DNA of 64,000 bases from Candidatus Omnitrophota bacterium (GTDB taxonomy: Bacteria; Omnitrophota; Omnitrophia; Omnitrophales; Aquincolibacteriaceae), in assembly GCA_903820505.1 (NCBI GenBank), contig CAIJHQ010000045.1, positions 79,625-143,624 of the forward strand, given 5' to 3'. A program made the position numbers and the translations under genes. The first letter of the stretch is position 1, and every line of letters begins with the position of its first letter. Positions 1 to 19,071 of the stretch are shown in pieces. The notes under the pieces were generated by a model. The model was not told the origin of the DNA. It saw nothing but the letters and a program-made list of their open reading frames with translations, and made no database searches.

Positions 1-1787
1 CTGACACTTTTCGTAAAAATAAATTTGGAATATTCACGGCCTTCGATCGCCTGCCGCAAAAACACGATCAACTCTTCGGCCGTCACCTTGATCCCCTGCT
101 CCCGCAACAAGGCCCCCAGGACTTTCATCTGACCGGAGCTGAATGAAAATCCCTTACCCTTCTTCGGTGCATCCTGCGGCGGGACATCGGAAAAATAAAG
201 CTCATACCCCTCGCGGTAGCTCGGTGAAAGGATGTCGTAGGTCCCCGGCCGGAGATGACCGTATCGCTCGAGAAATGCCTCTTTGGAAAGCTCCCGGCGG
301 TCACTGGCCATCCGCTTGGTCACGGTGTCCAGAGATGCCATAAAATCGTCAAATTCGCCCGAACTGATCAATCCGGTCTTGACCATCGAACGCAGGAACT
401 GAACGGCAATAAAGCCCGCGCGCGCCAAACCGGCGAACGGCAGCGTCCCGTAACGGCAGCAATCCTCGACCAGCCAATAGATCTTCTCGATCGGGTTGAG
501 TCCCGAGCCCAAAACTTTCCGCTGCCGCTCCTTGAGCTCCTCGATCCTGCGCAGATCGTTCGTCATGATCCCGTTGTGCCGGGTCAAAATATTATTGGTC
601 AATTGGACCAACGCATCCTTGATCTTTTGGAGGTCCCGGTCCGAAAAACCATACCCTTTAAGCTTTTTCAGGTCCTCATCAAGCCCCAGGAAAAAACACG
701 AGAAAATAATGTCAAATTCGACCTTATCATGACTGCTGGGAGACGCATGGAGGCGCCCCAGGTAATAATCCGCTAAACGTGCCGCCAGATCTTCGTCGAT
801 ACCCTTCGGAATGAATGAATTAAAACTCACTCGGACATCGATATACGGGTGGCCGATCAAGGTGAGCAGCAGCGGGTAGGATCGCACATTGCGGTAACCA
901 TAGTCATCGCGCTGATAAGACCAGGTTTTATCCGTGATGAGCTCTTTATAGAGCGACAAGGCAAGCGGTCGCGGCTTAACGCCGATCATCTCGGCCGGGT
1001 TCCAATCCGGCATCACCCCCAGATACGTCCTGCTCCCGTGCAGATACGGGTGCGGCGCATTGATGTGATCGACCTTCATGTGGATCTTGTGCAGATAATG
1101 CCCCACCATGAAAGTCTTCGGGAGTTCCCGTCCCCCGCGAACGATGGCCCTGACCTGGAGAATATGGACCTGGCCGGACCCGTCGATCGCAAACTCGATA
1201 TCCAGGCAGTCGTTCTTGCAGACTTCCTCGACCTCCCGGATGGCCTCCATAAGTTTTTCGAATTTCCCGAATTTCGTTTTAAAATTGCGGAACTTGATGA
1301 AGGTCTTAAGTTTATTGGACCTTCCCGAAGTGACACTGTCGGTCCGGGCGGATTCCTCATCGTAATTGATGATGTAGTAAGGCGCCAGAGTATCCAGATC
1401 ACGGGTGAACACCACGCCGCTCATCCGGACATCCCGGACCATGGGCTGAAGGAAAACCTGGTTCCCCCCCGCCGCTTTCACACCGTAGGAACACACCACG
1501 GCATCGATCGAACGCCGCAGGGCGTCCCGGTCCGAGATCAAGACCCCGGCCACCGACATGAACTTGCCGGCATTCGAGCCCGTCAAAAGATCTTCGTCCA
1601 GCGAGGAAGATCGGACAATGAACGCCCCGTTGCTCCCCTTGAAAGAATCCTCAATGCAGCGAAGGCAGGCGTCTTCGCCGGCCGACCATTCGGCGACCGT
1701 AAATCTGCAAATAGGCAGCACGCGCGATTTCTTGAGCAGCGGCCGGATCTGTTCCAGCGTCTCCGCTTTGGTCCCTAATTCAATCAT
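1..1787 (-). CDS. PEP-utilising enzyme family protein (PPDK_N nucleotide-binding domain; PEP synthase/pyruvate,water dikinase-like). The 3' end is cut by the window edge.
   Basis: The minus-strand reading frame is open from the ATG at ~1787 to position 1. It is absent from the ORF track because there is no stop inside the window. The translation contains IVRSSSLDEDLLTGSNAGKFMSVAGV, which matches the VRSSA-x-EDlp-SFAGQ-x-T-x-LNV signature of the PPDK_N ATP-grasp domain. Plus-strand ORFs 255..776 and 849..1778 are antisense to it. Confidence 0.7.
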   Translation of the reverse strand, partial: MIELGTKAETLEQIRPLLKKSRVLPICRFTVAEWSAGEDACLRCIEDSFKGSNGAFIVRSSSLDEDLLTGSNAGKFMSVAGVLISDRDALRRSIDAVVCSYGVKAAGGNQVFLQPMVRDVRMSGVVFTRDLDTLAPYYIINYDEESARTDSVTSGRSNKLKTFIKFRNFKTKFGKFEKLMEAIREVEEVCKNDCLDIEFAIDGSGQVHILQVRAIVRGGRELPKTFMVGHYLHKIHMKVDHINAPHPYLHGSRTYLGVMPDWNPAEMIGVKPRPLALSLYKELITDKTWSYQRDDYGYRNVRSYPLLLTLIGHPYIDVRVSFNSFIPKGIDEDLAARLADYYLGRLHASPSSHDKVEFDIIFSCFFLGLDEDLKKLKGYGFSDRDLQKIKDALVQLTNNILTRHNGIMTNDLRRIEELKERQRKVLGSGLNPIEKIYWLVEDCCRYGTLPFAGLARAGFIAVQFLRSMVKTGLISSGEFDDFMASLDTVTKRMASDRRELSKEAFLERYGHLRPGTYDILSPSYREGYELYFSDVPPQDAPKKGKGFSFSSGQMKVLGALLREQGIKVTAEELIVFLRQAIEGREYSKFIFTKSV

Positions 1788-1877
1788 GTTTCATAGCCTT
1801 TGCCATAAAAAAGTATCATCAGGCGATTAGGTTAATCCCGACCGTCAGCAAAATCAAACAAAAACCCGCCTGTCAGA

Positions 1878-3659
1878 TCAAAGGATCGCGTAGATCGCGT
1901 ACTCGTATCGCGGATCCGCCGGGGCAACACCGCGATAGATCGCCTTGAAATATTTGGTATCGCGGACAAGATTGCGGATGTTACGGTCCGAAAGGGCGCC
2001 CTTTGGGTCCACGGGACCGGCAATCAGTACGTGCGTGACTCCCTGCAGTTTTATAAAGGCGATCGCGTCCGCCGCGGTCGTAAAACGCGTATCGTAACGG
2101 GTCTTCGCGCGAAACTCCGGCTCACGGATCAGGACACGATCAAAATAAAACCCTCGGACCTCATAGGCGTTCAGGATTATCGCTTTCCGCGGCAGGTTCG
2201 CGTTCACGAACCGGGACGCCGGATAAGACCTCTCCACGCGGGACAAATAGTCCGCCTCCGACTCAAGTCCCAACGCCGCTCCATACCCGTCCCTTCCATG
2301 ATAAAAGGCCGCTCCCAGATCAAGAAAAAGTGCCAAAAAGAACAGCCCTCTTACGAACCGGGACGCCCATTTCCCCAGCTCTGGCCGGGATATACAAAAA
2401 CCGATCGGCACCACCCAAAGAGCACACGCCGGAAAAAGAAACCGGAGGTTCTGCCGCGGTAGAAAAAGCCAGAGGACCAGGTAGATCGCAGAAAAAAAGA
2501 GCAGATTGTTAACAGTCTTCGGACGGTTCCGGATCAAAAAGACGCCCGGCAGGAACGCGAGATAAAGAACGCCGACCCGCGCCCACATACCCCCAAAATG
2601 CGCCGGATCCATGGTCATGAACCACGGAGTCAACCAAGGAACCATCCCCTGGATCTTCTTGGCCTGATAACCTTTTTCCCCGAAATAAAGAAAACTCCCC
2701 TCATACGCGTAGGACCGGAAATACCAGACACAGCCGATGAGGAACGCGACCAACGCAAAAACTGCCAAAGCCGAAACCGAACTTTTCAGTGAAATGCGCC
2801 TGCTGACCCATTCGAGGAATAAACCAAGTGATATTGCGATCGCCGCAAACGCGGCAAGATACTTGACCCCGAGAGCAAAACCCAGAAATGCGCCGGACAG
2901 CACGGCCCAACGGATCTCGTGATGTTCACTCCACCGGATCGCGGCAAAAAAACTGAAAAAGAGAAAAAAGGTAAGGGCAATATCGTTGTAGGCGATGGTC
3001 ATCTGATTGAAAACGCCGGGAGTCAGCCAAAAAACCAGCGAAGCGATCCCGACCCAGGACCTGGGCAAACACCTTTTCTCGATCGCCAGAATACCAAGGA
3101 CCGTCCCCAAGGCGGTCATGAGATGAAAAAGGTTCGCCATCCGGGTACCGTCCCACATGACCGAAAGGACATAGAACTGATTCAGCAATAAGGGAAAAAC
3201 CGAATTGACCCCGTACGGTACGTAATAGATGCAACCCGCCAGCGCGAACCGTTTGGGGATATCCAAGTGATACGCCAACGCATCATGGGCGGTAGAAGGG
3301 ATCAGGGCCTGGACCACGGCTAAAAGGAACAAGATCACCAGCGCCGTCGCATAAGGCGTAAACCAGGTGGCGCGGGCGATAACCCTCCTCACCAGGGAAA
3401 GCATCCTCGGAGAATAGAAAAAAACCGGCAGTGATAAGACGAGGAACGATCCGTAGAGAGCAAGGGTATGAAATCCGCCGCAATAGCCGACGGCAAAAAT
3501 GATCAGCCCGATCGTTCCGAAACCAAGACAGAACGCGAAGGCGAACCGTTCGGTCAAAGAATCAAAAAAGAATTCCGCGCGCGTAAGGATCCGGTCTCCC
3601 CAAAAAGCGGACACCAGCGAGACCCAGGCCACAAGCAGGAGAGAAACGATCTGCGCCAT
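1878..3659 (-). CDS. Polytopic membrane protein, putative GT-C-fold glycosyltransferase with a C-terminal soluble domain.
   Basis: 593 aa with more than 10 predicted TM helices, followed by a ~150 aa soluble C-terminus. It lacks the clear DE motif of GT39, so the family assignment is weak. Its position directly downstream of a GT2 polyprenyl-P-sugar synthase suggests a donor-acceptor pair. Confidence 0.45.
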   Translation of the reverse strand: MAQIVSLLLVAWVSLVSAFWGDRILTRAEFFFDSLTERFAFAFCLGFGTIGLIIFAVGYCGGFHTLALYGSFLVLSLPVFFYSPRMLSLVRRVIARATWFTPYATALVILFLLAVVQALIPSTAHDALAYHLDIPKRFALAGCIYYVPYGVNSVFPLLLNQFYVLSVMWDGTRMANLFHLMTALGTVLGILAIEKRCLPRSWVGIASLVFWLTPGVFNQMTIAYNDIALTFFLFFSFFAAIRWSEHHEIRWAVLSGAFLGFALGVKYLAAFAAIAISLGLFLEWVSRRISLKSSVSALAVFALVAFLIGCVWYFRSYAYEGSFLYFGEKGYQAKKIQGMVPWLTPWFMTMDPAHFGGMWARVGVLYLAFLPGVFLIRNRPKTVNNLLFFSAIYLVLWLFLPRQNLRFLFPACALWVVPIGFCISRPELGKWASRFVRGLFFLALFLDLGAAFYHGRDGYGAALGLESEADYLSRVERSYPASRFVNANLPRKAIILNAYEVRGFYFDRVLIREPEFRAKTRYDTRFTTAADAIAFIKLQGVTHVLIAGPVDPKGALSDRNIRNLVRDTKYFKAIYRGVAPADPRYEYAIYAIL

Positions 3660-3789
3660 GATGTCAACCCGCCCTATGCATTACGAGAGAAACAAAATAA
3701 GCTCCGAACACCGCCAAAACCCACAGAAACCAGAGCCCTTTGAGAACGGTTGCGATCAGCGAGGAGCGGTCAGGACTGGCCACGGTCCG

Positions 3790-4515
3790 TTATCCGGTCA
3801 TTCTGAAACGGTTTTTCTGAAAACGAAACCACCAAACCTTCAGGAGGGCCTCGAATACAATGTGGCGTGAGATCTTCGAGTCGCCGGCTTTGCGGTCCGT
3901 GAACAGGATGGGAGTTTCGATGATCTTGAAACCTTTTTGGAGAGCGCGGTATTTCATTTCGATCTGGAAGCAGTATCCGTCCGAATGAATGTTGTCCAGG
4001 TCGATCGTCTCCAGCACCTTGCGACGGTAGCAGATATACCCCGCGGTCATATCATTCACCGATACGCCGAGGATGATCTTGCTGTAAAGGCTCGCCATCT
4101 GGCTTAAGAGGACCCGGTAAACCGGCCAATTGACGATCTTCCCTCCCCGCATCCAACGGGAACCCACAACGATATCGCAATTTTTGATCTTTTCGAAAAA
4201 AACCGGCAAATAACGCGGACGATGCGATAGGTCGGCGTCCATTTCCATGAACAGATCGTAATCACGCGCAAGTCCCCATTGGAACCCTGCCAGATAGGCC
4301 GGCCCAAGCCCCTGCTTTCCAGGACGCCGGAGCAGGTGAATACGCGGATTCTTCCGTGCGAACGACCCAACAAGGTCCCCCGTGCCGTCAGGAGAATTAT
4401 CATCGACGACAAGCACCTCGATGCCCGGATCCACGTTCATCAGGCGCCCAAGCAGCCGTTCGACGTTATCTGCTTCATTGTAAGTCGGTATAACGATCAG
4501 CGTTTTCATGGTCAT
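3790..4515 (-). CDS. GT2 polyprenyl-phosphate sugar synthase (DPM1/ArnC-like).
   Basis: Begins MTMKTLIVIPTYNEADNV and contains VVDDNSPDGT and a DAD motif. This is the typical dolichol-P-mannose synthase-like GT-A architecture, ~240 aa with no TM tail. Its ATG overlaps the stop of the upstream GT-C gene (ATGA at 4512-4515). Confidence 0.8.
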   Translation of the reverse strand: MTMKTLIVIPTYNEADNVERLLGRLMNVDPGIEVLVVDDNSPDGTGDLVGSFARKNPRIHLLRRPGKQGLGPAYLAGFQWGLARDYDLFMEMDADLSHRPRYLPVFFEKIKNCDIVVGSRWMRGGKIVNWPVYRVLLSQMASLYSKIILGVSVNDMTAGYICYRRKVLETIDLDNIHSDGYCFQIEMKYRALQKGFKIIETPILFTDRKAGDSKISRHIVFEALLKVWWFRFQKNRFRMTG

Positions 4516-5993
4516 TTCTCTTCAAGGCGGAAGATCAGAAATGATCTGTCCGGGATCGCGACGGGTTTAAAATGCGAACGGACATAGTCCGAAAATTTTG
4601 TGGAGGCATAATACTCGGAGGGTCCGGAAATAACAAGAAATTTAGCCCCGTCCCTCCTTAACTTCTCAAGCCAGAAAATGGGATCGCCATAACCTTCCTG
4701 GAACAGCTGTTGGTGCCGCGCCTGCTTGATAAGATGCCGCCCCCCGGCTTTGGACATTCCAAGATCAAACGACCAGCCTTTCCTGTGACAATAATAAAGG
4801 AGCCCGGCACTGGGCCCGTATTGAACGATCACCACATCCTCCGGCCGTGATATCTGCTGGACAACGGAGCCGATGCGCGGCATATTGCGCTCCACCTCTG
4901 AAAACCGCGATGCCGGCGGAAGGTAATAACGCATCGCAAGCAAAATAAAGGCCCCGCAAAACAATAGTTTCACGGTGAGTCCCCAACGATCCCACAAAAG
5001 TCCCAGGAGTGACGTGATCAGGATGGCCACGGCCGGCGCCCCACAGAGTAGATAAAAAGGATGGTCCATGACCTTCTGAGGCAGAATAAGGATCAGGCTG
5101 AGGCTCCCCCACGCCCAGACCAGCAAAGCGACAGGTTCTTTCTTCAAACGGAACAAGCTGATCAACGCGAATGGAAAAAGAATCGGTGTGCACCAGTAAG
5201 TCCCGAGGATGCTTAAGATCCTCTTATAGAAATCAAAGGACTTGAACAGGGACGTGATCAAAAAGCGGCCCTCTCCGGACTGCGTAAAGAGACTTGTCTG
5301 GACATGCGCAGCGTCGTGAAATTGCAGCACATGCATCCAAAAAACCCACGCGGCGACAGGGATGGCAGCGCCGATCAAAAAAACAAACGTCGTACGAAAT
5401 GAAAATTTTTCACGGTTGATCCAGATCAAAAAAGCCGGCAGCGCGATCCCAAAATGGATGCGTGCCGTCAAGGCGAGCGAGAACACTAAGCCGCTCAGGA
5501 GGATCTTCGCCAACACGGCGGAATCCAGCAGCCAAAAGGAGAGCATTAAGAAAAAAAGAGCGGCCGCTTCATTCTGGAACGTGATCCCCGACAAAAGCAC
5601 CATCGGGAAAAAGGAAAAAAAGAATACGGTGAGGAGCGCTTTTTTTTCTGTCAAAAAACGCCGGGCGATCGGAAAGAGTAAGATCGTCGCCCCAAAGACA
5701 AAGATCCCGGCCTGGAACCTCCCCCACCACGGGATGCCGCCGCCCAGCAGGGTATTCGAAAGAAACGCGACCAGAGAACCGAACGGATAATACAGCAGGT
5801 GAAGCCCGGGAGCTCCATTGACCAGGATAAAGGTCCGCGGAATAAAAAGATCCGCGACAGAACCTCCGCCCATCATTTCCGCCATCATGGCATTAACGGC
5901 CTGATAACTCCCGAAATAACCTCCGAGCGGATTGGAAAAGGCCGGACACTTCATCATCAATGTAACGAGCGCGATTCCTAAGGAAATAAGCAT
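4512..5993 (-). CDS. GT-C glycosyltransferase, ArnT/PMT_2 (GT39/GT83)-like.
   Basis: 493 aa polytopic protein. The segment WGRFQAGIFVFGATILLFPIARRFL resembles the conserved ArnT/PMT_2 helix (aRlpsal-fg-l-vlllyllarrl). Stop overlaps the downstream GT2 start. Confidence 0.65.
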   Translation of the reverse strand: MLISLGIALVTLMMKCPAFSNPLGGYFGSYQAVNAMMAEMMGGGSVADLFIPRTFILVNGAPGLHLLYYPFGSLVAFLSNTLLGGGIPWWGRFQAGIFVFGATILLFPIARRFLTEKKALLTVFFFSFFPMVLLSGITFQNEAAALFFLMLSFWLLDSAVLAKILLSGLVFSLALTARIHFGIALPAFLIWINREKFSFRTTFVFLIGAAIPVAAWVFWMHVLQFHDAAHVQTSLFTQSGEGRFLITSLFKSFDFYKRILSILGTYWCTPILFPFALISLFRLKKEPVALLVWAWGSLSLILILPQKVMDHPFYLLCGAPAVAILITSLLGLLWDRWGLTVKLLFCGAFILLAMRYYLPPASRFSEVERNMPRIGSVVQQISRPEDVVIVQYGPSAGLLYYCHRKGWSFDLGMSKAGGRHLIKQARHQQLFQEGYGDPIFWLEKLRRDGAKFLVISGPSEYYASTKFSDYVRSHFKPVAIPDRSFLIFRLEEK

Positions 5994-5994
5994 C

Positions 5995-12735: not shown

Positions 12736-12919
12736 ATCCCCTTCCTTTTCTTAGGGTTACAAACGGGCTCATTCTATCAACTTTCCCTACAACTCACAAC
12801 CTCGACCTGGCATGCCCGGCACCGCTTCACTAACCCGGAACAACGACAACGGGAGGGCTGGAGAACCGAAGCAAGCATTGTCCCGGAAAATCGCCGCAAA
12901 GAAGCGGCGCTCGAGCGAA

Positions 12920-14665
12920 TTAAATTTTCTCCAGGCCAGGCTGTCCTAGCTTCCGGTCATAGGTGCCGCGGTAAAAAGTCCGTCCCGGATAAGCGGCCAT
13001 GAGCTCTCTATTACGATCACCGAGGTCGTGGGCGTAAAGGATCCGGCCGTCAAGAAACGGGCTGTTGCGAACGGCATCTTCTTCGGCCATGACCAGCTTG
13101 TCGCCAAGGAACCCGTGAATGAAAACAATGGCGGGCTGTTCCACCGTTCGTTCGGCCAGATCATAAAGAGCCCGGCGCTGGCGGCTGGCTTCCCCGGTGA
13201 ATTCTGCGTGCTTGATAAATAGTAGGCCCGAGCTCGCTATAGATGTCGCGACAAATACGAAGAGAAATTTACGCCCGCGGACACTGCATGTCTTCCACCG
13301 GGTCACGATCCAGTCAGCGACGGAAATACAGAGGAATGGCAACCCCTCCCACCAATAGCGGGGCCCCCACTGGTTCCCACCCCAGGAGTAGTAAAGAAAA
13401 TAGGCAAGAGCGAGAAAAACCATGGAAAAACGGAAAAACGCCTTAATGCGGTCCATTCCTTTAATCTTAGATAGCAAAAAAAGATAGGCGGCAACAAACG
13501 CCGGAGCAAACCAATCCATGAGATAAAAAACGCGGGCGATCAGATAGAAAAATCCGTCGACCGGCGTGTAATGCCCCCTCTTGAAACCAAGACGCTCCCA
13601 GGATTGGTAGTATTTGAGCGGAGTTTTGAACAGCTTCCCTGTAACTGCAATGTTTAGGAGGAACATAAGCGCTACAAAGGACCCGACGATCGCAACAAAA
13701 ACCATCTCGGCTTTACGGAGCTGAGGACGTTTGAATCTAAAGGGGATCCAACCAAAACGCTCACTGCCCGTTGTCGCGCCACCGGGGCTCTTCCGGTCGA
13801 AAAAAAGCGGGAGATAATGAGAGAGGAGGAATGGAACTGCGATCGCGAACATGGTAAGCGGCCGGGTTATCAAACCGTAGCCGACCCCAATCCCGCACAG
13901 GATCGCCCAGCCGACCGGATCCTTCCCCTGTCCATAGGCTTCATGCCAACGCAAGAAGGCATACAAAAAGACCGCTATCGTGAGCAGGCAGGTTGCATGG
14001 GAAAAATAAGCCGCGGCCGTGAACATGAAAAAAGGGCTTAGACACGTCATGATCAGCCCCAGAACGGCGGCGGGACGGCCAAACAACCGTTCCCCCGAAA
14101 GATATAAGAAAAAGACCGCCGTTGCCGCCATGACAGGATTGAGCCAATCCACGATGTTGAACCGGAGACCGAAAGCCCATATCAGAGGCCATCCGGGAGG
14201 ATAAACGCTGAACCACTTCCCTCCCTTCATCCCGACATGGACGACCTGGAAAAAATCCGCGAACTGCGGAATGGGGACAAAAAGCTTTCCCTTCCGGAGG
14301 CACTCCGCAAGAAAATAGCAGGAGTGCTCGTCACCGGAGCTGAGAAACGAATGGAGAACGTGCCGGTTGATCCAGTAGAGAACAAGAACTAAAAAGCCTA
14401 AGGCGAAGAAGCCGAGCGCAAATCCAAGAGCTTTTGACGGGCCACGGCTGGGATCCGTAATTTTTGACGAAAATAGAAAATCCGGAAGAAGATAGTAGCC
14501 CAGGAAGGCAACGAGGATCGTGACGCCCAGGAGCAGGATAGAGTCCGCGGTCATGAAAAGATTGCGTCCCCACACTTGCTGGACATGCGGGACCCATAAG
14601 GAGGCCGCGCAACAAAAAGACCCGAGAAGCAAAAGCCCAGTCTGTTTTAGATATCCCTTGCCCAT
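12920..14665 (-). CDS. GT-C glycosyltransferase, GT39/PMT_2-like.
   Basis: 581 aa polytopic protein. It has the loop-1 acidic motif SGDEHSCYFLAE and the segment NPVMAATAVFFLYLSGERLFG (ArnT/PMT_2 signature). A 184-bp gap separates it from the downstream GT2. Confidence 0.65.
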   Translation of the reverse strand: MGKGYLKQTGLLLLGSFCCAASLWVPHVQQVWGRNLFMTADSILLLGVTILVAFLGYYLLPDFLFSSKITDPSRGPSKALGFALGFFALGFLVLVLYWINRHVLHSFLSSGDEHSCYFLAECLRKGKLFVPIPQFADFFQVVHVGMKGGKWFSVYPPGWPLIWAFGLRFNIVDWLNPVMAATAVFFLYLSGERLFGRPAAVLGLIMTCLSPFFMFTAAAYFSHATCLLTIAVFLYAFLRWHEAYGQGKDPVGWAILCGIGVGYGLITRPLTMFAIAVPFLLSHYLPLFFDRKSPGGATTGSERFGWIPFRFKRPQLRKAEMVFVAIVGSFVALMFLLNIAVTGKLFKTPLKYYQSWERLGFKRGHYTPVDGFFYLIARVFYLMDWFAPAFVAAYLFLLSKIKGMDRIKAFFRFSMVFLALAYFLYYSWGGNQWGPRYWWEGLPFLCISVADWIVTRWKTCSVRGRKFLFVFVATSIASSGLLFIKHAEFTGEASRQRRALYDLAERTVEQPAIVFIHGFLGDKLVMAEEDAVRNSPFLDGRILYAHDLGDRNRELMAAYPGRTFYRGTYDRKLGQPGLEKI

Positions 14666-14683
14666 AGCCTCCGCAATCCCCTG

Positions 14684-15757
14684 TTATTCATTCTCCCGGA
14701 TCACGTTCGCTGCCAGAAGATTTCCCTGCGAGGTCCAGTGCCAATCATTCTTGATGTAATAAACTTCGAGACCGTCCTTTGCGACGGCATCATTGAATTC
14801 CGGCCTAAGGTTGATAAGATCGACCTTTTCACGATCCGCGAAACGCCGGATCGACCTCTCCAGGGAAGTTCTTCGCGTACTTTCCGCCCAATCCTTGGGA
14901 GGCAATAAAACCAAAATAGGGGTTGCCTGATCGCGCCGGACTTCCAGGATGAGCTTCTGAAGAATGGCCCGCCCGATCATCCATTCTTCCGACGTATCGG
15001 GATCGATAAGGCGCATGTTTTTGGCAAGTTTGATCAATGGTTTCTTGGCCACCCGGTAGAGGACGCTCCTGTTAAGAACTTTTTGAAGATCACTCTGCTC
15101 CAACAACGGGGGAAATTGATCCGTAGTCAAAGAAAAGGGCGGAGGGACGGGCACGTTGTGCAGAATCAGATCTCCCTTCTCGGAAAGTGAAAAGTAGGGT
15201 TTGACGTGCCCGGAATCAGCGAACGAACGCGTGCATCGCCAGAAAGCTTCGGGAAAAACACCTATCAGAACGATGTCGGGATGATATTGTTTCGCGATCT
15301 CCCGGTAAGAAAGATATATCTGGTCGATCCCGTATCCCGGCACCCCGAGATTCAGGACTTCCCGGTTTCCGCCGTCGGCCTCCAGAACGGCAGGAAAGGT
15401 TTCCTGATCCTGGACGCCGAATCCAAATACAAAGCTGTCGCCAAGCGCCGCGATGCGGATGACTCCGGCCGGCTTTTTGATGGCATATTCCCGGGTCCCG
15501 CGAAAACCGGCGGAATTCGTGTGAACGGTCACCGAGGGGAAATTCGGGGATTCCAGTACGGCGGTCTTATTCTTCTGGGAGTACCAGCCAAGGACCGGAT
15601 GATGCTCGACCCAGGAATTCTCAGGCACATTCACCCATCCCATCCGGGGCTTTTCAGGAAACTTGATCCGGTCGATCTTGACAACACGCAGAACAACCTC
15701 CGCGAGGGTTAACGCAAGCAACAGCGCCAAGATCGACACAAACAGGTTCTTTTTCAT
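14684..15757 (-). CDS. SGNH-fold protein with a DxHW motif (AlgX/AlgJ-like periplasmic O-acyltransferase or esterase), signal-anchored.
   Basis: Block I is GDSFVFGFGV. The C-terminus has IKNDWHWTSQGN, a D-x-H-W-T motif as in the AlgJ/AlgX family. The N-terminus is a hydrophobic anchor, MKKNLFVSILALLLALTLA. The start was moved to the internal ATG at 15757; the ORF track begins at 15835. Confidence 0.65.
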   Translation of the reverse strand: MKKNLFVSILALLLALTLAEVVLRVVKIDRIKFPEKPRMGWVNVPENSWVEHHPVLGWYSQKNKTAVLESPNFPSVTVHTNSAGFRGTREYAIKKPAGVIRIAALGDSFVFGFGVQDQETFPAVLEADGGNREVLNLGVPGYGIDQIYLSYREIAKQYHPDIVLIGVFPEAFWRCTRSFADSGHVKPYFSLSEKGDLILHNVPVPPPFSLTTDQFPPLLEQSDLQKVLNRSVLYRVAKKPLIKLAKNMRLIDPDTSEEWMIGRAILQKLILEVRRDQATPILVLLPPKDWAESTRRTSLERSIRRFADREKVDLINLRPEFNDAVAKDGLEVYYIKNDWHWTSQGNLLAANVIRENE

Positions 15758-15835
15758 GGGACCCTTCGATAGCTTTTGAAGTGCAAGGAATATCGCATTG
15801 CCGCATAGGCTATCAGAAATCGATACAGCCGACAA

Positions 15836-16603
15836 TTGACATTACGCATTAAAAACATTAATCTTTCCCCTATGAATGCCGCGACTTTTATCAGTTTCAT
15901 CACCCCGATCTACAACGAAGAGTTGAACATCGCCGGGATGCTCAGAAACTTCTTTGCCGTCCTGAACGCCCATCCGGAATGGAACTGGGAAGTGATCTTG
16001 ATCGAGGACGGAAGTAAGGACAAGACCCGCGCTGTCCTTCAGAAAGAGATGTCCCAATACCCCAACGCAAAGCTGATCATCCATGAAAAGAACCAAGGAT
16101 ATACCCGCTCCCTCAAAGACGGGATCGCAGCCTCTCGCGGTAAGTACCTGATGTACATCGGAGCGGATGAGGAGTTCGATTCGTCCGAGATCCCCGCCTT
16201 TGTTGATATCCTGAAAAAGAACGAGACAGATGTCCTGCTGGGTGTACGCTGGCAACGCAACGCCTACCAGCTTTTCCGTTTCTTCCTGTCCGTGATCTAC
16301 ATTTTCCTGCTCAATTACCTGTTCAAGATCCGCATCAACGATTACAACTGGTCGCAGGCCTGGAGCCGAAAACTTCTTGATCATATCGACCTGACCTCCG
16401 CTTCTCTTTTTATACTTCCCGAGATCATCATCAAGGCCCATGACCTGGGTTACCGCATCAAAGAGATCCCCTCGAACCACCGCGGCCGCCAAGCCGGAAA
16501 ATCGTCGGTCAACATGAAGATCATGGGATCGGCGCTTTGCGAGGGGCTGAGATTCTGGTTCTACCGAAGATCAAAAAAATACCGCCCGGCAAAAAATCCC
16601 TGA
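15836..16603 (+). CDS. GT2 glycosyltransferase (GT-A fold).
   Basis: This is the only plus-strand gene in block 1. Motifs: ISFITPIYNEE, ILIEDGSKD, GADEEF (DxD). It has two C-terminal hydrophobic stretches. By eye its GC content is lower than that of its neighbours. The start may instead be the internal ATG at ~15872. Confidence 0.75.
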   Translation: MTLRIKNINLSPMNAATFISFITPIYNEELNIAGMLRNFFAVLNAHPEWNWEVILIEDGSKDKTRAVLQKEMSQYPNAKLIIHEKNQGYTRSLKDGIAASRGKYLMYIGADEEFDSSEIPAFVDILKKNETDVLLGVRWQRNAYQLFRFFLSVIYIFLLNYLFKIRINDYNWSQAWSRKLLDHIDLTSASLFILPEIIIKAHDLGYRIKEIPSNHRGRQAGKSSVNMKIMGSALCEGLRFWFYRRSKKYRPAKNP

Positions 16604-16663
16604 CAAGAGACCAGTAGCATTCCTCGGGCCGGTGAAGAAATTGGTCAGAAAACCATCACGGCG

Positions 16664-18364
16664 TTATTTAAGCTTATAAACCGTGATCGTGTAACCGTTC
16701 CGTTCTCTCGCGCGGATATCTTTCCACAGGAACGGTCCCCCGGTAAGAGGCAAGGTGTCGTAATCCTTCATTCCAAAGGACTTGCGGTAAGGTGAAAATT
16801 TCACGACAGGATCCGCGACCTTTTCAAGCCCCGCCGCGAAGGGATCCTTTGGATCACGGGGTTCGCTAACCATAACAACATAATCCACTTTCTTCCGTCG
16901 CAGCGTCTCGAGATCAAACGGGACCTTAGGCTCCGCGAATAAAAATTGCGGCCCTGACGGATCACGACTCAGGAAATATAGCTCGTATGAAGGTTGCCGC
17001 GATCTTGACAACAGGGCTTCCAGGCGTCTTTTTTGGGCGCCCGCTTGGGCTCCATCCGTCCGGTCCAGACCGCCCATTTTTTCTTTTAACTGGTCGGAAG
17101 AAAACGAAAGCCGCGGCGTGAAAATGGTCCCCTCCAGCGCGATCCGGCTCCCCGGCGGAATGTGACTTTCGATCCATGCTCTCGCCACTGTACGCACGTC
17201 AGGAGATGCCATCAGTCGGTCCCATTGAACTATCTTCCAAAACGCGGGAATAACAAGGATCAGGATGATAATTCCTTTGAGGATCACGCCTAAGAAAACT
17301 TTTCCTTTAGACAATACGTCCATGTAGGGAATGAGAAAATCGACCGCAAAAATACAAACGAACGGGACCAGCGGTAGAACGTAGCGATCATAAGGTTGCC
17401 CCCATCTGCAAAGGACCATGTAGTATCCCAGAACAAAAATAGCCATCGCCTCCCGCGCGGGTTTTCCGGAAAAAACCGCCCGAAGCCAGCCCCCAAACGC
17501 CACCGTAAGCAATGAAGCTCCTACCGCGCCGGAAAGCGAATATTTTATGTGGTGGAACCACGGCACTCCCTGATTCGATCGGGATTGATCAGTAACTTCC
17601 CTGAATAACAACGGCCAGTCGAGGACCGAAAAGGGATTGCACAGGATAAATACGAGCCCGGCCGTCGCACCCGCGAAACCCCAAAAAACCGGCCATCGCC
17701 GCCACGGGACCGTACGCAAGCAGACCCAGAGATAAGGCAGCGCCAGGAACACGCCGTTGTATTTCGTCGCAGCTGCCAGACCGATCGTGCCGCCGCACAG
17801 CAAATGCAGCTTCCATGACGAGGGTGCGTCGCTCAGACGCGCCATCAAGCAAAAACCCGTCAAAAGGACGCAAAGAAGCGGGATGTCGGCATAGATATAG
17901 TGGGAATCACGGGCGTGCAGAAAATTGACCGCTAAAAGCAGCGCTGCCCAAAGGGCCATTTCCGTGGTCCACAACCGCTTGACCAACCGGTAGACCCCGT
18001 AGACCGTCGCGGTACCGAGAAGTACCCCGAAAATAACGCGGGCGATCAGATAAAAAGATGTCGGGTCGGAATAGAACAACTGTTCGAGATCCCGTACTGA
18101 ATGAAAATACCCGGCAGTTCTCCCCAGAACATAAAAGATCCCATAACAGAAGAAAAGAAGATAACTGACAAGCGGCGGTATCTTGAAAAAATGAGGGTTC
18201 AGATCGCCCGTTCCGTAGGCCAGGGCATGATTGACCACGATGGGTTCATCAGCGTGATAAAGCTCCGGGAGACCGAAATTGACCGCGAAAACGCGGACCA
18301 GGAACGCCAGGGCCAGGATCCCGAGCAACAACACTGTCTCGCGGGAGAGGCGAAGCGCTTTCAT
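16664..18364 (-). CDS. GT-C glycosyltransferase, GT39 (PMT_2/ArnT-like).
   Basis: 566 aa. Loop-1 has LPELYHADEP (conserved DE). It has ~11 TM helices followed by a periplasmic C-terminal domain. Its start overlaps the stop of the upstream GT2 by 1 nt. Confidence 0.75.
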   Translation of the reverse strand: MKALRLSRETVLLLGILALAFLVRVFAVNFGLPELYHADEPIVVNHALAYGTGDLNPHFFKIPPLVSYLLFFCYGIFYVLGRTAGYFHSVRDLEQLFYSDPTSFYLIARVIFGVLLGTATVYGVYRLVKRLWTTEMALWAALLLAVNFLHARDSHYIYADIPLLCVLLTGFCLMARLSDAPSSWKLHLLCGGTIGLAAATKYNGVFLALPYLWVCLRTVPWRRWPVFWGFAGATAGLVFILCNPFSVLDWPLLFREVTDQSRSNQGVPWFHHIKYSLSGAVGASLLTVAFGGWLRAVFSGKPAREAMAIFVLGYYMVLCRWGQPYDRYVLPLVPFVCIFAVDFLIPYMDVLSKGKVFLGVILKGIIILILVIPAFWKIVQWDRLMASPDVRTVARAWIESHIPPGSRIALEGTIFTPRLSFSSDQLKEKMGGLDRTDGAQAGAQKRRLEALLSRSRQPSYELYFLSRDPSGPQFLFAEPKVPFDLETLRRKKVDYVVMVSEPRDPKDPFAAGLEKVADPVVKFSPYRKSFGMKDYDTLPLTGGPFLWKDIRARERNGYTITVYKLK

Positions 18365-19071
18365 CAGGGATGCAGCCGTCGGATCTTCAGAACGTCCCGG
18401 AACATCCTCAGCGGATCGCTCAGGACCTGAACGCGGCTTTGGGCGGAATTCCGCCAGATCACCGGGAGCTCAAGCACACGGTAGCCGCGTTTTTGCGCCA
18501 GGTACACGATCTCGACGTCAAAACTGAACCCGTCGAGTTTCTGTTCCCCGAAAAGTTTATGGGCCGCTTCCCTGCGGAAACACTTGAACCCGCATTGGGA
18601 ATCCCGTACGCCTTTGAACGCCCAGCGCTGCGCGATAAGGTTAAAGACCTTTCCCATCGTTTCTCGGAGGAAGCCCTGGTGGATCTCGATCTGGGAATCC
18701 GGAAGCGCCCGTGAACCGATCGCGACGTCGCAATCTATCCGGAGATAATCAAGAAAACGGGAAACTTCAGTGATCGGCGTGGAAAGGTCCGCGTCCGTAA
18801 AAAGGATGTACTGTCCGGTCGCCGCGAGCATCCCCTGCCGTACGGCGTACCCTTTGCCGCGGTTCCGGGGAGTGGTCAGGATCTTGTGCGGGAAATCCAC
18901 GAGTTTTTCCTCAGCGATCGCGACCGTTCGGTCCCGGCTCCCGTCATCTGAAACAAGAACTTCGGAATCGTAGGATTGCTTCTTCAAAAAATCAAGGACC
19001 GCATCCAAAGTGTGCGGTAACCGTAAATCTTCATTGTAGGCCGGAATGACCACCGAAAGGTAAGGCGCCAT
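18364..19071 (-). CDS. GT2 polyprenyl-phosphate sugar synthase (DPM1/ArnC-like).
   Basis: Motifs: LSVVIPAYNE, VSDDGSRD, TDAD. 235 aa and soluble. Lies immediately downstream of the UDP-xylose synthase gene. Confidence 0.8.
   Translation of the reverse strand: MAPYLSVVIPAYNEDLRLPHTLDAVLDFLKKQSYDSEVLVSDDGSRDRTVAIAEEKLVDFPHKILTTPRNRGKGYAVRQGMLAATGQYILFTDADLSTPITEVSRFLDYLRIDCDVAIGSRALPDSQIEIHQGFLRETMGKVFNLIAQRWAFKGVRDSQCGFKCFRREAAHKLFGEQKLDGFSFDVEIVYLAQKRGYRVLELPVIWRNSAQSRVQVLSDPLRMFRDVLKIRRLHP

Follow-up and report, generated by a model that had tools for sequence, protein, structure and literature searches.

A Conserved Omnitrophota Locus with Parallel Modules for Putative Stepwise Glycosylation of the Cell Envelope

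A block of ∼26 kb in the genome of an uncultured Omnitrophota bacterium encodes five membrane glycosyltransferases of the GT-C type, four GT2 glycosyltransferases, a flippase-like protein, and an unstudied 543-aa enzyme. Our reading, with a probability of about 0.7, is that this is an envelope-glycosylation locus typical of the lineage and made of several parallel, multicomponent transmembrane modules. As such, it would be an undescribed, conserved variant of a known theme, the extracytoplasmic decoration of cell surfaces. What the analysis shows directly is to which families and folds the proteins belong, how the genes are ordered and conserved, and which of them occur fused. Coordinates refer to the window, i.e., the whole stretch of 64,000 nucleotides that was analyzed.

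GT-C Membrane Glycosyltransferases

1878–3659, minus strand: GT-C, PMT_2/ArnT-like, 593 aa, ∼14 hydrophobic segments by hydropathy (PF13231, 34.9 bits)
4512–5993, minus strand: GT-C, 493 aa (PMT_2, 25.1 bits, just under the cutoff)
6937–9315, minus strand: YfhO-like GT-C, 792 aa (homologues with PF09586, AF2 fold)
12920–14665, minus strand: GT-C, PMT_2-like, 581 aa (PF13231, 35.2 bits)
16664–18364, minus strand: GT-C, PMT/PMT_2-like, 566 aa (PF02366, 42.7 bits; PF13231, 41.3 bits)

All five polytopic proteins are GT-Cs by HMM, profile, or fold, four of them PMT_2/ArnT-like and one YfhO-like, which bears out the number given in the initial annotation. The Pfam PMT_2 cutoff of 26.1 bits is passed by the proteins starting at 1878, 12920, and 16664. 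The 493-aa protein is probably the one previously called uncertain, and the profile of its orthologues (A4) matches a GT-C of the PDB, "GPI mannosyltransferase 1" (23gf_B, 9.5e-8). Whether seeded with 1878, 4512, or 16664, a jackhmmer search gathers one common set of ∼110 ORFs, with which the 12920 search shares members. When the orthologue profile of 16664 (A3) is run against the PDB, the sole matches are Pmt1 (6p25, 1e-6) and ArnT (5ezm, 2e-3). The 12920 protein also resembles the LA_3751/LA_3752 family (NF047440, 5.6e-13, under the cutoff).

As for the YfhO-like protein, it has no match of its own in the Pfam scan, and most of its homologues, at 35–42% identity, carry PF09586. Its AF2 model (pLDDT 92.6) places solely GT-Cs at the top of the Foldseek list: AftD, ArnT, STT3, EmbB, AglB, and PglB. 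The GT-C status of the polytopic proteins is further supported by conserved acidic residues of the first loop: D39 and E40 are invariant in alignment A3, and D38, together with G37, is nearly so in the YfhO-like alignment A1.

GT2 Enzymes

3790–4515, minus strand: GT2, 241 aa, no TM segment, candidate polyprenyl-P-sugar synthase (PF00535, 98 bits)
11872–12735, minus strand: GT2, 287 aa, two C-terminal hydrophobic segments, candidate ArnC/DPMS/GtrB-like polyprenyl-P-sugar synthase (PF00535, 89.8 bits)
15836–16603, plus strand: GT2, 255 aa, or 243 in the source gene call (PF00535, 93.9 bits)
18364–19071, minus strand: GT2, 235 aa, no TM segment, candidate polyprenyl-P-sugar synthase (PF00535, 106 bits)

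The count of these genes is four and not the five claimed initially; nor does the cluster lie on one strand, since 15836–16603 is on the plus strand. Its orthologues (68–81% identical) occupy the identically inverted position in loci L003, L007, L008, L017, and L022. For three of the four GT2s the best library matches are polyprenyl-P-sugar synthases (AglJ, Dol-P-hexose transferase, ArnC, PpgS), with none of the four reaching an NCBIfam equivalog cutoff; and three of the four, unlike GtrB and ArnC, have no C-terminal TM helices. The 3790 enzyme, whose orthologues are 40–77% identical, has PpgS, Dol-P-hexose transferase, AglJ, and ArnC as top NCBIfam matches, all well under their cutoffs, and 18364 scores ∼1e-16 against AglJ, ArnC, and PpgS. 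The 11872 enzyme matches AglJ at 2.5e-35 and Dol-P-hexose transferase at 5.6e-29, and its best PDB matches are ArnC (9hwj, 1e-11), DPMS (5mlz), and GtrB (5ekp), over ∼250 residues.

Conservation and Age of the Paralogues

The gene set recurs in identical order across dozens of Omnitrophota MAGs. The cluster is thus typical of the lineage and not a one-off, which answers the check on related genomes proposed at the outset and qualifies the view of the locus as unusual. The 1878 protein has 38 orthologues in Omnitrophota loci, mostly encoded immediately downstream of the YfhO gene, and the 12920 protein has eight. Every GT2 and GT-C paralogue has its own orthologue group and a fixed position in these MAGs, and mutual divergence is strong: the GT2s share 22–29% identity, and BLAST of the cluster GT-Cs against one another detects no similarity. 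By this evidence the paralogues are ancient. Between genomes the GT2s are 64–81% identical versus 27–62% for the GT-Cs, a pattern consistent with conserved donors and faster-evolving, acceptor-facing enzymes.

Nucleotide-Sugar Genes and Extent of the Locus

19074–20024, minus strand: UDP-glucuronate decarboxylase (UDP-xylose synthase, UXS; phmmer against the PDB)
20021–20995, minus strand: dTDP-4-dehydrorhamnose reductase (RmlD), start codon uncertain (TIGR01214, 254.7 bits, cutoff 224)
20998–21975, minus strand: dTDP-glucose 4,6-dehydratase (RmlB; TIGR01181, 420.8 bits, cutoff 365)
21972–22703, minus strand: glucose-1-phosphate thymidylyltransferase-like (RmlA-like; PF00483, 194.8 bits)
22759–24054, minus strand: UDP-glucose 6-dehydrogenase (Ugd; all three UDPG_MGDP_dh domains; TIGR03026, 458.6 bits, cutoff 189.8)
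24079–26508, minus strand: LptD-like outer-membrane LPS-assembly protein (PF04453, 44.7 bits, cutoff 22.4)

The cluster had been confined to 1–19071, a region that also carries genes for a SAM methyltransferase and an SGNH protein. It is larger: the genes above continue it up to 26.5 kb, so that it reaches at least 24054 and possibly 26508, and it also extends past the window start. UXS, Ugd, and RmlA/B/D lie directly upstream of the glycosyltransferase genes, spaced by −4 to 55 nt. UXS matches human UXS1 over its full length (4gll/2b69, E 6e-102; next family 2e-34), and the RmlA-like protein scores 247.8 bits against TIGR01207, under the cutoff of 360. RmlC was not found, which makes the dTDP-sugar end product ambiguous. 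The LptD-like gene is 24 nt upstream of ugd, and its membership in the cluster is uncertain.

The stop/start overlaps first listed are borne out: 4 nt at 4512–4515 (GT2 3790/GT-C 4512) and at 10231–10234 (flippase-like/543-aa ORF), 1 nt at 18364 (GT-C 16664/GT2 18364), and others at 20021–24 and 21972–75; a further 23 nt are shared by the flippase-like and YfhO-like genes. As the genome is compact and has a 30-kb run of co-directional genes, such spacing is weak evidence for an operon.

Phosphoramidate Cassette and SGNH Protein

3–1787, minus strand: PEP-utilizer/PPDK_N-type kinase, N-terminal 595 of 780 aa, cut by the window start (NF004508, 695 bits, cutoff 501)
14684–15757, minus strand: membrane-anchored SGNH/GDSL protein, 357 aa (Lipase_GDSL_2, 42.2 bits, cutoff 32.9)

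The first gene had been described as a PPDK-like dikinase. The PPDK_N type holds, and the full-length protein (P0225) scores 939.6 bits against NF004508; "dikinase" does not, as homologues at 48–53% identity bear the JGI name "glutamine kinase", some fused to APS_kinase. Its sequence places it in the glutamine-kinase family of the phosphoramidate pathway, and it is predicted to open a cassette continuing past the window start, where the source contig has a Peptidase_C26 GATase, an NTP_transferase, and a cytidylate kinase, in resemblance to the phosphoramidate genes Cj1418/1417/1416 of C. jejuni. Likewise, the AlgX/AlgJ-like SGNH protein is SGNH but only weakly ALGX (18.8 bits, cutoff 26.5); it also matches the LA_2490-family SGNH (4.9e-16, under the cutoff) and may act on the glycan as an esterase or O-acyltransferase. 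ORFs 255–776 and 849–1778, both on the plus strand, were rejected as antisense artefacts of the kinase gene.

A Probable Module Built around the 543-aa Family

5995–6876, minus strand: SAM-dependent methyltransferase, 293 aa, N-terminal Cys pair motif, one C-terminal hydrophobic segment (Methyltransf_23, 82.7 bits)
9293–10234, minus strand: MprF-flippase-domain-like (UPF0104) membrane protein, 313 aa (PF03706 LPG_synthase_TM, 146.8 bits)
10231–11862, minus strand: 543-aa protein of an uncharacterized family, (alpha/alpha) toroid plus beta-sandwich, hydrophobic helical hairpin

The methyltransferase and the UPF0104 protein (82.9 bits against TIGR00374, cutoff 43.2) stand as annotated, and the 543-aa ORF was missing from that inventory. 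Its family is large and fixed between the GT2 and flippase-like genes across several phyla: the triad occurs in Deltaproteobacteria, Tectimicrobiota, Yanofskybacteria (the 11872 orthologues of these three being 50–58% identical), and Omnitrophota, and both partners are within 2.5 kb in 34 of the 46 metagenome loci with enough flank. This recurrence, together with a YfhO::methyltransferase fusion in a relative (P0002, 1109 aa) and fusions of the 543-aa family to a methyltransferase of the 5995–6876 type (P0414, P0422), argues for one module of GT2 (11872), 543-aa protein, flippase-like protein, YfhO, and methyltransferase. In archaea, UPF0104 proteins are predicted to work with AglD-like GT2s and PMT/STT3-like enzymes (PMC5898192).

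What could the 543-aa protein do? It is a cytoplasmic protein with a fold of the uronate epimerase/lyase type, by matches at just 6–15% identity and TM-scores of ∼0.5, and a candidate for modifying the lipid-linked sugar. The uronate reading is weakened by the rarity of Ugd near the triad (1 of 80 metagenome loci).

Proposed Mechanism and Acceptor

From these data we infer the donors, the module pairing, the topology of action, and the acceptor. In the cytoplasm, Ugd and UXS would supply UDP-GlcA and UDP-xylose, and RmlA/B/D a dTDP-6-deoxyhexose. At the inner membrane face, the four divergent GT2s would charge polyprenyl phosphate with single sugars; the lipid-linked sugars would be flipped, at least one of them by the MprF-type UPF0104 protein; and on the outer face the five divergent GT-Cs would pass them one by one to an acceptor in the envelope. 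The SGNH protein, the methyltransferase, and the neighboring phosphoramidate cassette may add non-sugar decorations.

Or, are the sugars preassembled and transferred en bloc, as in Wzx/Wzy/WaaL O-antigen assembly? Against this, none of the ORFs scanned matched a Wzx, Wzy, WaaL, or phosphoglycosyltransferase family; the scan took in almost every long ORF of the window that does not overlap another, and four of these lacked any Pfam match. A set just outside the window, which the initial annotation had named as grounds for abandoning its proposal, was likewise not found in the 10 kb beyond the window start, by the source contig gene table and a syntenic relative. Stepwise transfer from polyprenyl-P-monosaccharides, as first proposed, fits this absence, the GT-C assignments, and the GT2 matches.

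Stepwise transfer could be divided among four modules: (i) Ugd–UXS–GT2 (18364)–GT-C (16664), where the GT2 is a candidate partner of UXS and the GT-C; (ii) the 543-aa module, in which the enzyme would first act on the lipid-linked sugar and flipping would follow; (iii) GT-C (4512)–GT2 (3790), plus GT-C (1878); and (iv) the plus-strand GT2 (15836), GT-C (12920), and the SGNH protein. The UXS–GT2–GT-C block of module (i) is kept in ∼23 loci. This module is Arn-like but has no aminotransferase, formyltransferase, or deformylase, which would make its sugar a neutral pentose. Matching the components one to one is in part guesswork, given four GT2s against five GT-Cs and a single flippase-like gene.

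Which acceptor receives these sugars? The triad is present in Patescibacteria too, which to our knowledge have no LPS, and this argues against lipid A for module (ii). For the locus as a whole, LPS core/lipid A comes first among the candidates, with roughly one chance in three. The lean toward LPS comes from L020 and L033, which share the order LptD–Ugd–UXS–GT2–GT-C (their LptD is 47% identical), from L090, where heptose-pathway genes come after the cluster, and from L003, where a GT9 heptosyltransferase adjoins it.

Gene organization of the cluster

Between positions 1 and 26508 of the window, nearly all of the real genes lie on the minus strand. The intergenic gaps along this chain range from -23 to +184 nt, with a single exception of 906 nt (15757 to 16664), which is the site of a GT2 gene on the plus strand. 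The initial annotation had described, within positions 1-19071, a glycosylation supercluster of repeated modules with five polytopic GT-C proteins and five GT2 synthases, all on one strand. Four GT2 genes were found (starting at 3790, 11872, 15836, and 18364), and the single-strand arrangement fails at the one of 15836-16603. The stop/start overlaps that it had named are all real junctions. The genes of this region are as follows.

24079-26508, minus: LptD-like protein (PF04453)
22759-24054, minus: Ugd
21972-22703, minus: RmlA-like protein
20998-21975, minus: RmlB
20021-20995, minus: RmlD
19074-20024, minus: UDP-xylose synthase (human UXS1, E 6e-102; next family 2e-34)
18364-19071, minus: GT2 (PF00535)
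16664-18364, minus: GT-C (PMT/PMT_2)
15836-16603, plus: GT2 (PF00535)
14684-15757, minus: SGNH protein (Lipase_GDSL_2)
12920-14665, minus: GT-C (PMT_2)
11872-12735, minus: GT2 (PF00535)
10231-11862, minus: 543-aa protein, no family match
9293-10234, minus: UPF0104/MprF-flippase-like protein (PF03706)
6937-9315, minus: 792-aa polytopic protein, YfhO-like (PF09586-bearing homologues and AF2 fold)
5995-6876, minus: SAM methyltransferase (Methyltransf_23)
4512-5993, minus: GT-C (PMT_2, 1 bit under the cut-off)
3790-4515, minus: GT2 (PF00535)
1878-3659, minus: GT-C (PMT_2)
3-1787, minus: PEP-utilizer-type kinase, truncated by the window start

Two plus-strand ORFs, 255-776 and 849-1778, have no family matches and run antisense to the kinase gene; they were set aside as spurious.

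Is this an ordinary O-antigen locus? The first reading of the sequence had seen no Wzx, Wzy, WaaL, or initiating phosphoglycosyltransferase, and this holds: none of these families was detected on the ORFs scanned, which comprise nearly all long non-overlapping ORFs of the 64-kb window, four of them without a Pfam match. Nor does a Wzx/Wzy/WaaL set appear in the ~10 kb beyond the window start, according to the gene table of the 228.6-kb metagenomic source contig, in which the cluster goes on past this end with a Peptidase_C26 GATase, an NTP_transferase, a cytidylate kinase, and an unannotated gene. No O-antigen machinery was seen in the syntenic relative either.

GT-C transferases and candidate GT2 synthases

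All five polytopic proteins are borne out as GT-C by HMM, profile, or fold, and none as a permease. Three exceed the cut-off of PF13231 PMT_2 (26.1 bits), namely, 1878-3659 (34.9 bits), 12920-14665 (35.2), and 16664-18364 (41.3), the last of which also matches PF02366 PMT at 42.7 bits. The protein 4512-5993, with 25.1 bits, falls just under the cut-off; it is counted as a GT-C because jackhmmer searches converge and because its profile matches a GT-C mannosyltransferase. Indeed, searches started from 1878, 4512, and 16664 among the ORFs of 85 related loci arrive at the same ~110 proteins, a set that the small one of 12920 overlaps, and the profile of the 4512 orthologues (15 sequences) matches "GPI mannosyltransferase 1" in the PDB at 1e-7. 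Single PMT_2-type sequences, like the kinase fragment, gave nothing useful in phmmer searches of the PDB, and orthologue profiles were needed for the GT-Cs. That of 16664 (23 orthologues) found at E<=1 only yeast Pmt1 (1e-6) and ArnT (2e-3). In the first loop of this group, D39 and E40 are invariant in 23/23 sequences; in the 4512 group no acidic residue is invariant. A crude Kyte-Doolittle scan gives 10-14 hydrophobic segments per PMT_2-type protein, followed by a hydrophilic C-terminal part of 100-200 aa, and Pfam detected no MIR or other PMT-specific luminal domains on the window GT-Cs.

The 792-aa protein 6937-9315 has itself no Pfam match even at E<=1, PF09586 included, while most of its homologues at 27-42% identity carry PF09586; for this reason, it is filed as a divergent "YfhO-like" protein. 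Its AF2 model (pLDDT 92.6, pTM 0.92) was compared with the PDB by Foldseek, and the first 28 matches are all GT-C, with AftD and ArnT in the lead (E ~1e-6 to 1e-5) and STT3, EmbB, AglB, and PglB further on. The window GT-Cs would draw on sugars linked to polyprenyl phosphate as donors, on the outer side of the membrane.

As for the GT2 proteins, PF00535 is present on all four, at 89.8-106.4 bits. The top NCBIfam matches of 3790, 11872, and 18364 are the polyprenyl/dolichyl-phosphate sugar synthases PpgS, Dol-P-hexose transferase, AglJ, and ArnC, all far below the equivalog cut-offs, and those of 15836 are a generic GT2 and PgaC, then PgfS and ArnC, again far below the cut-offs. AglJ is the best match of 11872, the sole GT2 run against the PDB, where it matches ArnC, DPMS, and GtrB over ~250 residues. 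C-terminal hydrophobic segments number two in 11872, one in 15836, and none in 3790 and 18364; since soluble DPM1-type synthases exist, this count does not settle the type of GT2.

A recent tandem duplication is rejected as the source of the repeated modules: the window GT2s are mutually 22-29% identical, the GT-Cs are mutually undetectable by BLAST, and they fall into separate orthologue groups. Given such low mutual identity, both sets are old paralogues and not recent repeats.

Conservation across the Omnitrophota

The nearest relatives of the YfhO-like protein, with up to 43% identity, all come from Candidatus Omnitrophota MAGs. Within 10 kb of its gene, these MAGs typically hold 2-4 more GT-Cs of the PMT_2 type, 1-5 GT2s, and a methyltransferase. 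Orthologue groups of the window GT-Cs have 44, 38, 18, and 8 members at E<1e-10 and occupy conserved positions. On JAKLIQ010000004.1 (loci L007 and L090), the closest relative, the order is UXS, GT2, GT-C, inverted GT2, GT2, 543-aa protein, and flippase-like gene, continuing with a YfhO::methyltransferase fusion, GT-C, GT2, GT-C, kinase, GATase, NTP-transferase, and cmk; the GT-C 12920 and SGNH genes were not detected on this contig, and the order is otherwise that of the window. The succession LptD-Ugd-UXS-GT2-GT-C is also kept in L020 and L033. Identity between genomes is 64-81% for the GT2s, 27-62% for the GT-Cs, and 31-43% for the YfhO-like proteins, and the window has the fullest version of the cluster among the loci compared.

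Conservation in related genomes, which had been proposed as a check, is therefore clear: the same set and order recur in dozens of MAGs at 27-81% protein identity. Because gene set and order recur in this way across the phylum, the cluster is a lineage trait, not a one-off. A literature search returned no description of it in Omnitrophota.

The surroundings vary. L003 has in addition an arylsulfotransferase, a sulfotransferase, and a GT9 heptosyltransferase (16680-21965); L004, a DegT aminotransferase, an acetyltransferase, and NeuB, a nonulosonic acid enzyme (17014-21727); and in L005, a TagF-like Glyphos_transf domain fused to CTP_transf_3 adjoins the cluster (18587-21157). Decorations appear to differ between Omnitrophota lineages around a fixed GT-C/GT2 core.

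An unannotated protein family between a candidate synthase and a flippase-like protein

The ORF 10231-11862 encodes 543 aa for which no usable Pfam match was obtained even at E<=1; the precomputed label "PF25840" on some homologues was not reproduced by a Pfam HMM search. It belongs to a large, tightly conserved family without annotation: among 1.84 billion representatives, 2327 clusters belong to it at E<=1e-3, and 1131 still do at E<=1e-30, which makes more than 1,100 clusters at 50% identity. Homologues in Omnitrophota, Hydrogenedentota, Deltaproteobacteria, Tectimicrobiota, and Yanofskybacteria show 42-66% identity, and 59 positions of the family alignment are invariant, many of them charged or aromatic and including His, Tyr, Asn, Arg, and Glu; H165, Y209, N164, N265, and H311 (numbered as in the window protein) are among them.

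The AF2 model (pLDDT 91.1, pTM 0.93) consists of an (alpha/alpha) toroid (~8-321) and a beta-sandwich (338-541) bearing a hydrophobic helical hairpin (425-455); no signal peptide was found. DS-epimerase 1 is the top Foldseek match; next come PL33, PL8, GAG, xanthan, hyaluronate, alginate, and heparin lyases. These enzymes all abstract the C5 proton of uronic acids, and on a monosaccharide with a free 4-OH such chemistry would be expected to give epimerisation, not elimination. The likeness to DS-epimerase 1, the PL8/PL12/PL17/PL33 uronate lyases, and the AGE epimerases is one of fold only, toroid plus beta-sandwich, with an identity of 6-15% and no HMM-level relationship. Unlike these enzymes, the 543-aa protein is predicted to be cytoplasmic and has the hydrophobic hairpin, and its gene is set in a lipid-linked-sugar context instead of a polysaccharide-degrading one.

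This context is well preserved. The order GT2 (~290 aa), 543-aa protein, and UPF0104 protein (~310 aa), here called the triad, is found in Deltaproteobacteria (CP070692.1), Tectimicrobiota, Yanofskybacteria, and Omnitrophota, usually with overlapping stop and start codons, and the orthologues are 50-58%, 43-45%, and 29-35% identical, respectively, to those of the window. Of the metagenome loci, 46 have flanks of 2.5 kb or more on either side; among these, a flippase-like gene lies within 2.5 kb in 37, a GT2 in 38, and both in 34. A large polytopic ORF, which may or may not be a GT-C, lies within 4.5 kb in 34 of the 40 loci with at least 4 kb on each side. The third member in the window, 9293-10234, reaches 146.8 bits for PF03706 (cut-off 33.4) and 82.9 for TIGR00374 (cut-off 43.2), and these matches make it a flippase candidate. 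Gene fusions extend the association: YfhO is fused to the methyltransferase in protein P0002 and in a 1109-aa gene of L090, and the 543-aa protein is fused to a methyltransferase in P0414 and P0422. In the window, the triad overlaps the YfhO gene by 23 nt. Because of the triad and of the two kinds of fusion, the genes from 11872-12735 through 5995-6876 (synthase, modifier, flippase, transferase, and methyltransferase) are best read as one block.

What might the new enzyme do? A specific proposal, with a probability of roughly 0.2, is that it acts at the cytoplasmic face on a uronic acid linked to polyprenyl phosphate, by C5 epimerisation or by some other remodelling of the sugar. Together with the GT2, the MprF-type flippase, the SAM methyltransferase, and the YfhO-type GT-C, it would form a five-component pathway, widespread across Omnitrophota, Patescibacteria, Deltaproteobacteria, Tectimicrobiota, and Hydrogenedentota. 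By this route, an unusual L-configured uronate, possibly methylated, would reach the envelope. Ugd adjoins the triad in only 1 of 80 metagenome loci, which lends no support to a uronate substrate, and a literature search gave no description of lipid-linked uronate C5-epimerases or of UXS+ArnT systems. Linked in several phyla to a GT2 and an MprF-type flippase, the family offers a concrete, testable candidate for a new enzyme modifying lipid-linked sugars.

Upstream of the triad in Deltaproteobacteria and Tectimicrobiota there are polytopic proteins of ~520-546 aa (L086:4332-5972 and L088:4568-6124) with no Pfam match. They share an invariant N-terminal FDDDARQHVYW, which resembles GDHRQQHYPW of the YfhO-like protein. 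Their assignment as YfhO- or PMT_2-like was tried by jackhmmer and by hhalign against the YfhO-like and 16664 alignments, and found no support.

Sugar supply and the LPS context

The sugar nucleotide genes of 19074-24054 include RmlA, RmlB, and RmlD, and no RmlC (3,5-epimerase) was seen among them; the dTDP-sugar may therefore not be L-rhamnose, unless rmlC is located elsewhere. At the other end of the window, 60451-63193, a PfkB kinase (60451-61380), ThiE (61370-62014), a cytidylyltransferase-like protein (62021-62494), and a GmhA-like SIS_2 protein (62522-63193) follow one another. The candidate ADP-heptose pathway pieces are here split and interleaved with thiE, and they suggest that the LPS core contains heptose. 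In L090, a fused HldE and GmhA come directly after the glycosylation cluster, and a GT9 heptosyltransferase adjoins it in L003. With the conserved adjacency of lptD, these genes of L090 and L003 tilt the choice of acceptor weakly towards LPS. The triad is also found in Patescibacteria, which argues for a different target at least of this module.

A candidate phosphoramidate-type cassette

The truncated gene at the window start had been taken for a PPDK-like dikinase. It does encode a kinase, and its dikinase identity gives way to the glutamine-kinase family NF004508, for which the full-length protein (P0225) scores 939.6 bits and the window fragment 695, above the cut-off of 501. Among the homologues of 3-1787 at 48-53% identity, many carry the JGI name glutamine kinase, and fusions to an APS-kinase domain occur; the assignment comes from NF004508 and these names. 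In L090, the next gene has by far its best match in NF045546, the gamma-glutamyl-CDP-amidate hydrolase (2.8e-55, 187.5 bits), below the cut-off of 250. It is followed by a generic NTP_transferase and by an ordinary cmk, not of the Cj1415/APS-kinase type. No MeOPN transferase and no Cj1421/1422-type transferase were identified in L090.

The Cj1415-Cj1418 enzymes of Campylobacter jejuni (Cj1418 glutamine kinase, Cj1417 hydrolase, Cj1416 cytidylyltransferase, and Cj1415 kinase) produce CDP-phosphoramidate 3'-phosphate for the O-methyl phosphoramidate groups of its capsule (PMC11800397). The window cassette has the same order of kinase, GATase, and nucleotidyltransferase for what would be the first three functions, with matching families. 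It differs in the fourth gene, a cmk not of Cj1415 type, in the score of the hydrolase (187.5 against 250), and in that most of the cassette lies outside the window. It is reasonable to propose that the glycan of the locus may carry a phosphoramidate-type group.

The cassette of kinase, GATase, NTP_transferase, and cmk abuts the glycosylation cluster at L090:10001-15408, in L089, and at the window start. A 269-aa protein after cmk has a weak CDP-alcohol phosphatidyltransferase-like match and could be the missing transferase. Environmental bacteria have this kinase family very widely: of the 8000 candidates scored, 7777 had E<=0.001.

Comparison with known systems

The Arn (Pmr) pathway of Gram-negative bacteria comprises Ugd, ArnA, ArnB, ArnC, ArnD, ArnE/F, and ArnT. 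Its logic is shared by the window: Ugd and a UDP-GlcA decarboxylase, then an ArnC-like GT2 (structures of ArnC are in PMC12690121), then an ArnT-like GT-C that would act at the outer face. The 543-aa protein sits between synthase and flippase, in the place of ArnD, and the block from 11872-12735 through 5995-6876 parallels ArnC-ArnD-ArnE/F-ArnT in logic, although its parts are unrelated. The differences are substantial. The decarboxylase is a true UXS orthologue and would thus lead to a neutral pentose; the flippase candidate is of the MprF type; and there are five transferases instead of one. HMM searches of the cluster ORFs found no ArnB-type DegT/aminotransferase, formyltransferase, polysaccharide deacetylase (ArnD), or SMR protein (ArnE/F). 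The locus is not Arn, but only Arn-like in logic.

Gram-positive three-component systems consist of CsbB/GtlA (GT2), GtcA (flippase), and YfhO/GtlB (GT-C) (PMC5836110, PMC7389260, PMC8035078). As would be the case in the window, a GT2 polyprenyl-phosphate-sugar synthase works there with an extracytoplasmic GT-C of the YfhO family, to which 6937-9315 is related. However, the host of the window is of diderm type, with LptD, no small flippase of the GtrA/GtcA type was seen in the window, and the YfhO HMM is not reached. The acceptor in those systems is teichoic acid, of which none is evident here, although L005 has the TagF-like gene.

Several GT-Cs using polyprenyl-phosphate-sugar donors are also found in Rhizobium (RgtA-D/RgtE) and in mycobacteria (PimE, Mpt, Aft, and Emb). 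As is proposed for the window, paralogous GT-Cs there add single sugars outside the cytoplasm from donors made by GT2s (for PimE, see PMC12041525). The likeness is one of profile and fold, not sequence-level orthology: the 4512 profile recalls the GPI/PIM-type mannosyltransferases, and the YfhO-like model recalls AftD and EmbB. Those enzymes are mostly scattered and use one or two donors, whereas the window has five GT-Cs and four different GT2s in one conserved block.

Also comparable is the archaeal neighbourhood of an AglD-type GT2, UPF0104, and a PMT/STT3-like protein, in which UPF0104 is a predicted flippase (Makarova et al. 2015, PMC5898192). There, as in the window, the three families are linked by neighbourhood or fusion, and the best match of the GT2 11872 is AglJ. 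The window, in turn, is bacterial and has in addition the strictly conserved 543-aa toroid/beta-sandwich protein between GT2 and UPF0104; in one of the archaeal settings, a deacetylase is described, and not the 543-aa family (PMC5898192). The window block extends the archaeal GT2/UPF0104/PMT-STT3-like neighbourhood. Overall, the locus is a version of known multi-component transmembrane glycosylation, notable for its size, its phylum-wide conservation, its new enzyme family, and the adjoining phosphoramidate cassette.

Proposed mechanism and alternatives

The mechanism that would account for this gene set begins with cytoplasmic enzymes making UDP-GlcA, UDP-Xyl, and a dTDP-6-deoxyhexose, which the GT2s would load onto polyprenyl phosphate. 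The 543-aa enzyme and the methyltransferase would remodel at least one of the lipid-linked sugars. After flipping, the five GT-Cs would transfer the sugars singly to an envelope acceptor, and the SGNH protein and the phosphoramidate enzymes would add decorations. The initial annotation is confirmed in part as an observation, with counts, strand, and dikinase corrected, and supported in part as an interpretation.

Other explanations have to be weighed against this stepwise envelope glycosylation. To our knowledge, five conserved, non-redundant GT-Cs exceed any described side-chain system, and no backbone machinery was found in the 64-kb window or, on the one contig examined, ~10 kb beyond. Both points speak against the idea that the genes merely add side chains, in the manner of Gtr, GacI/L, or three-component systems, to a polysaccharide assembled en bloc by Wzx/Wzy or ABC-transporter machinery elsewhere in the genome, with the locus as an accessory to an ordinary O-antigen or capsule pathway. 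This idea is possible, if somewhat doubtful: known GT2 plus GT-C systems usually work in this manner (PMC8035078, PMC11127046), the adjoining phosphoramidate and heptose genes of C. jejuni decorate a capsule (PMC11800397), and the Glyphos_transf gene adjoins the cluster in L005. Are the acceptors instead proteins? PMT-like GT-Cs would then move polyprenyl-phosphate sugars to Ser/Thr of secreted or surface proteins, like the actinobacterial Pmt or the streptococcal PgfS/PgfM1/PgfM2. Yeast Pmt1 does rank ahead of ArnT for the 16664 profile, the same protein matches PF02366, PgfS is among the GT2 matches, and in Patescibacteria the target of the triad would have to be proteins or the wall, not LPS. 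Yet the luminal domains specific to PMTs were not found, the profile matches ArnT as well, and transferases to lipid A and to glycans also belong to PMT_2. With LPS-related neighbours (LptD, heptose pathway, and GT9) and no candidate acceptor protein in the locus, protein O-glycosylation is quite unlikely.

A different reading concerns the triad, which might make a terminal membrane glycolipid, flipped and kept in the outer leaflet like the products of MprF, C. difficile HexSDF, or hopanoid HpnI/K/L, and not a GT-C donor. UPF0104/MprF-type proteins do flip end-product lipids (PMC5898192), the GlcN-phosphatidylglycerol flippase is among the NCBIfam matches, and in L086 and L088 the triad occurs without a recognisable PMT_2 or YfhO, the upstream proteins being unlike either family by hhalign. 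This reading is nevertheless unlikely: the GT2 11872 is closest to Dol-P/Und-P sugar synthases, the Omnitrophota triad abuts the YfhO gene with its 23-nt overlap, the methyltransferase fusions tie the 543-aa family to YfhO, large polytopic ORFs stand near the family in 34 of 40 metagenome loci, and L087 has a PMT_2 GT-C directly upstream. Finally, the clustering could be meaningless, with unrelated membrane proteins and GT2s side by side and some of the polytopic ones being permeases. A whole 31-kb stretch is co-directional and tightly packed, with unrelated GGDEF, AccD, and ABC ATPase genes; still, the GT-C identity of all five polytopic proteins, the preservation of gene set and order at 27-81% identity over dozens of MAGs, and two independent gene fusions leave this explanation hardly tenable. 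The stepwise envelope glycosylation thus stays the preferred reading.

Polymyxin resistance (Arn), serotype conversion (Gtr), the decoration of teichoic acids (YfhO), and the mycobacterial wall all depend on glycosylation outside the cytoplasm from polyprenyl-phosphate sugars, a process that, as far as we know, has hardly been studied in uncultured phyla. Omnitrophota are ultra-small, often host-associated bacteria, and they keep a conserved block of five GT-Cs and four GT2s as core surface biology. Glutamine-kinase-type phosphoramidate genes, known in Campylobacter capsules, adjoin such loci in environmental bacteria. If the reading is true, these loci can offer new donors and enzymes for glycoengineering, and clues to how the cells present themselves to hosts and phages.

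Other features of the window

The remainder of the window (27-64 kb) encodes two GGDEF proteins, an ABC ATPase, AccD, RpoN, glutamate synthase, a NUDIX protein, and PFK, together with a polyphosphate set (PPK1, PPX, ROK, and PPK2), MscS, Mla, and the heptose-pathway pieces. The GGDEF proteins are tandem diguanylate cyclases (26505-29314), one with GAF, whose genes share 19 nt; the downstream one also shares 4 nt with the start of lptD. Such overlaps hint at c-di-GMP signalling co-expressed with envelope genes, or they may be mere tight packing. The polyphosphate genes form a compact, co-directional set at 42028-47671 (PPK1, PPX/GppA with an HD domain, a ROK-family kinase, and PPK2), and the ROK-family kinase is possibly a polyphosphate glucokinase.

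The base composition of the cluster is also distinctive. The plus-strand AT skew is 0.09-0.31 across 1-19000, with its peak at 2-10 kb, and -0.09 to 0.07 over most of the remaining window, with one bin of 0.17 at 32-34 kb. The cluster skew likely stems from T-rich codons for hydrophobic residues in the minus-strand membrane proteins. G+C in the cluster is 2-5 points below that of much of 32-64 kb.

A last observation concerns a 153-aa protein (56378-56839) that adjoins the Mla-like genes and matches the Cys_rich_FGFR repeat (PF00839, E 8e-14), a repeat typical of eukaryotes.
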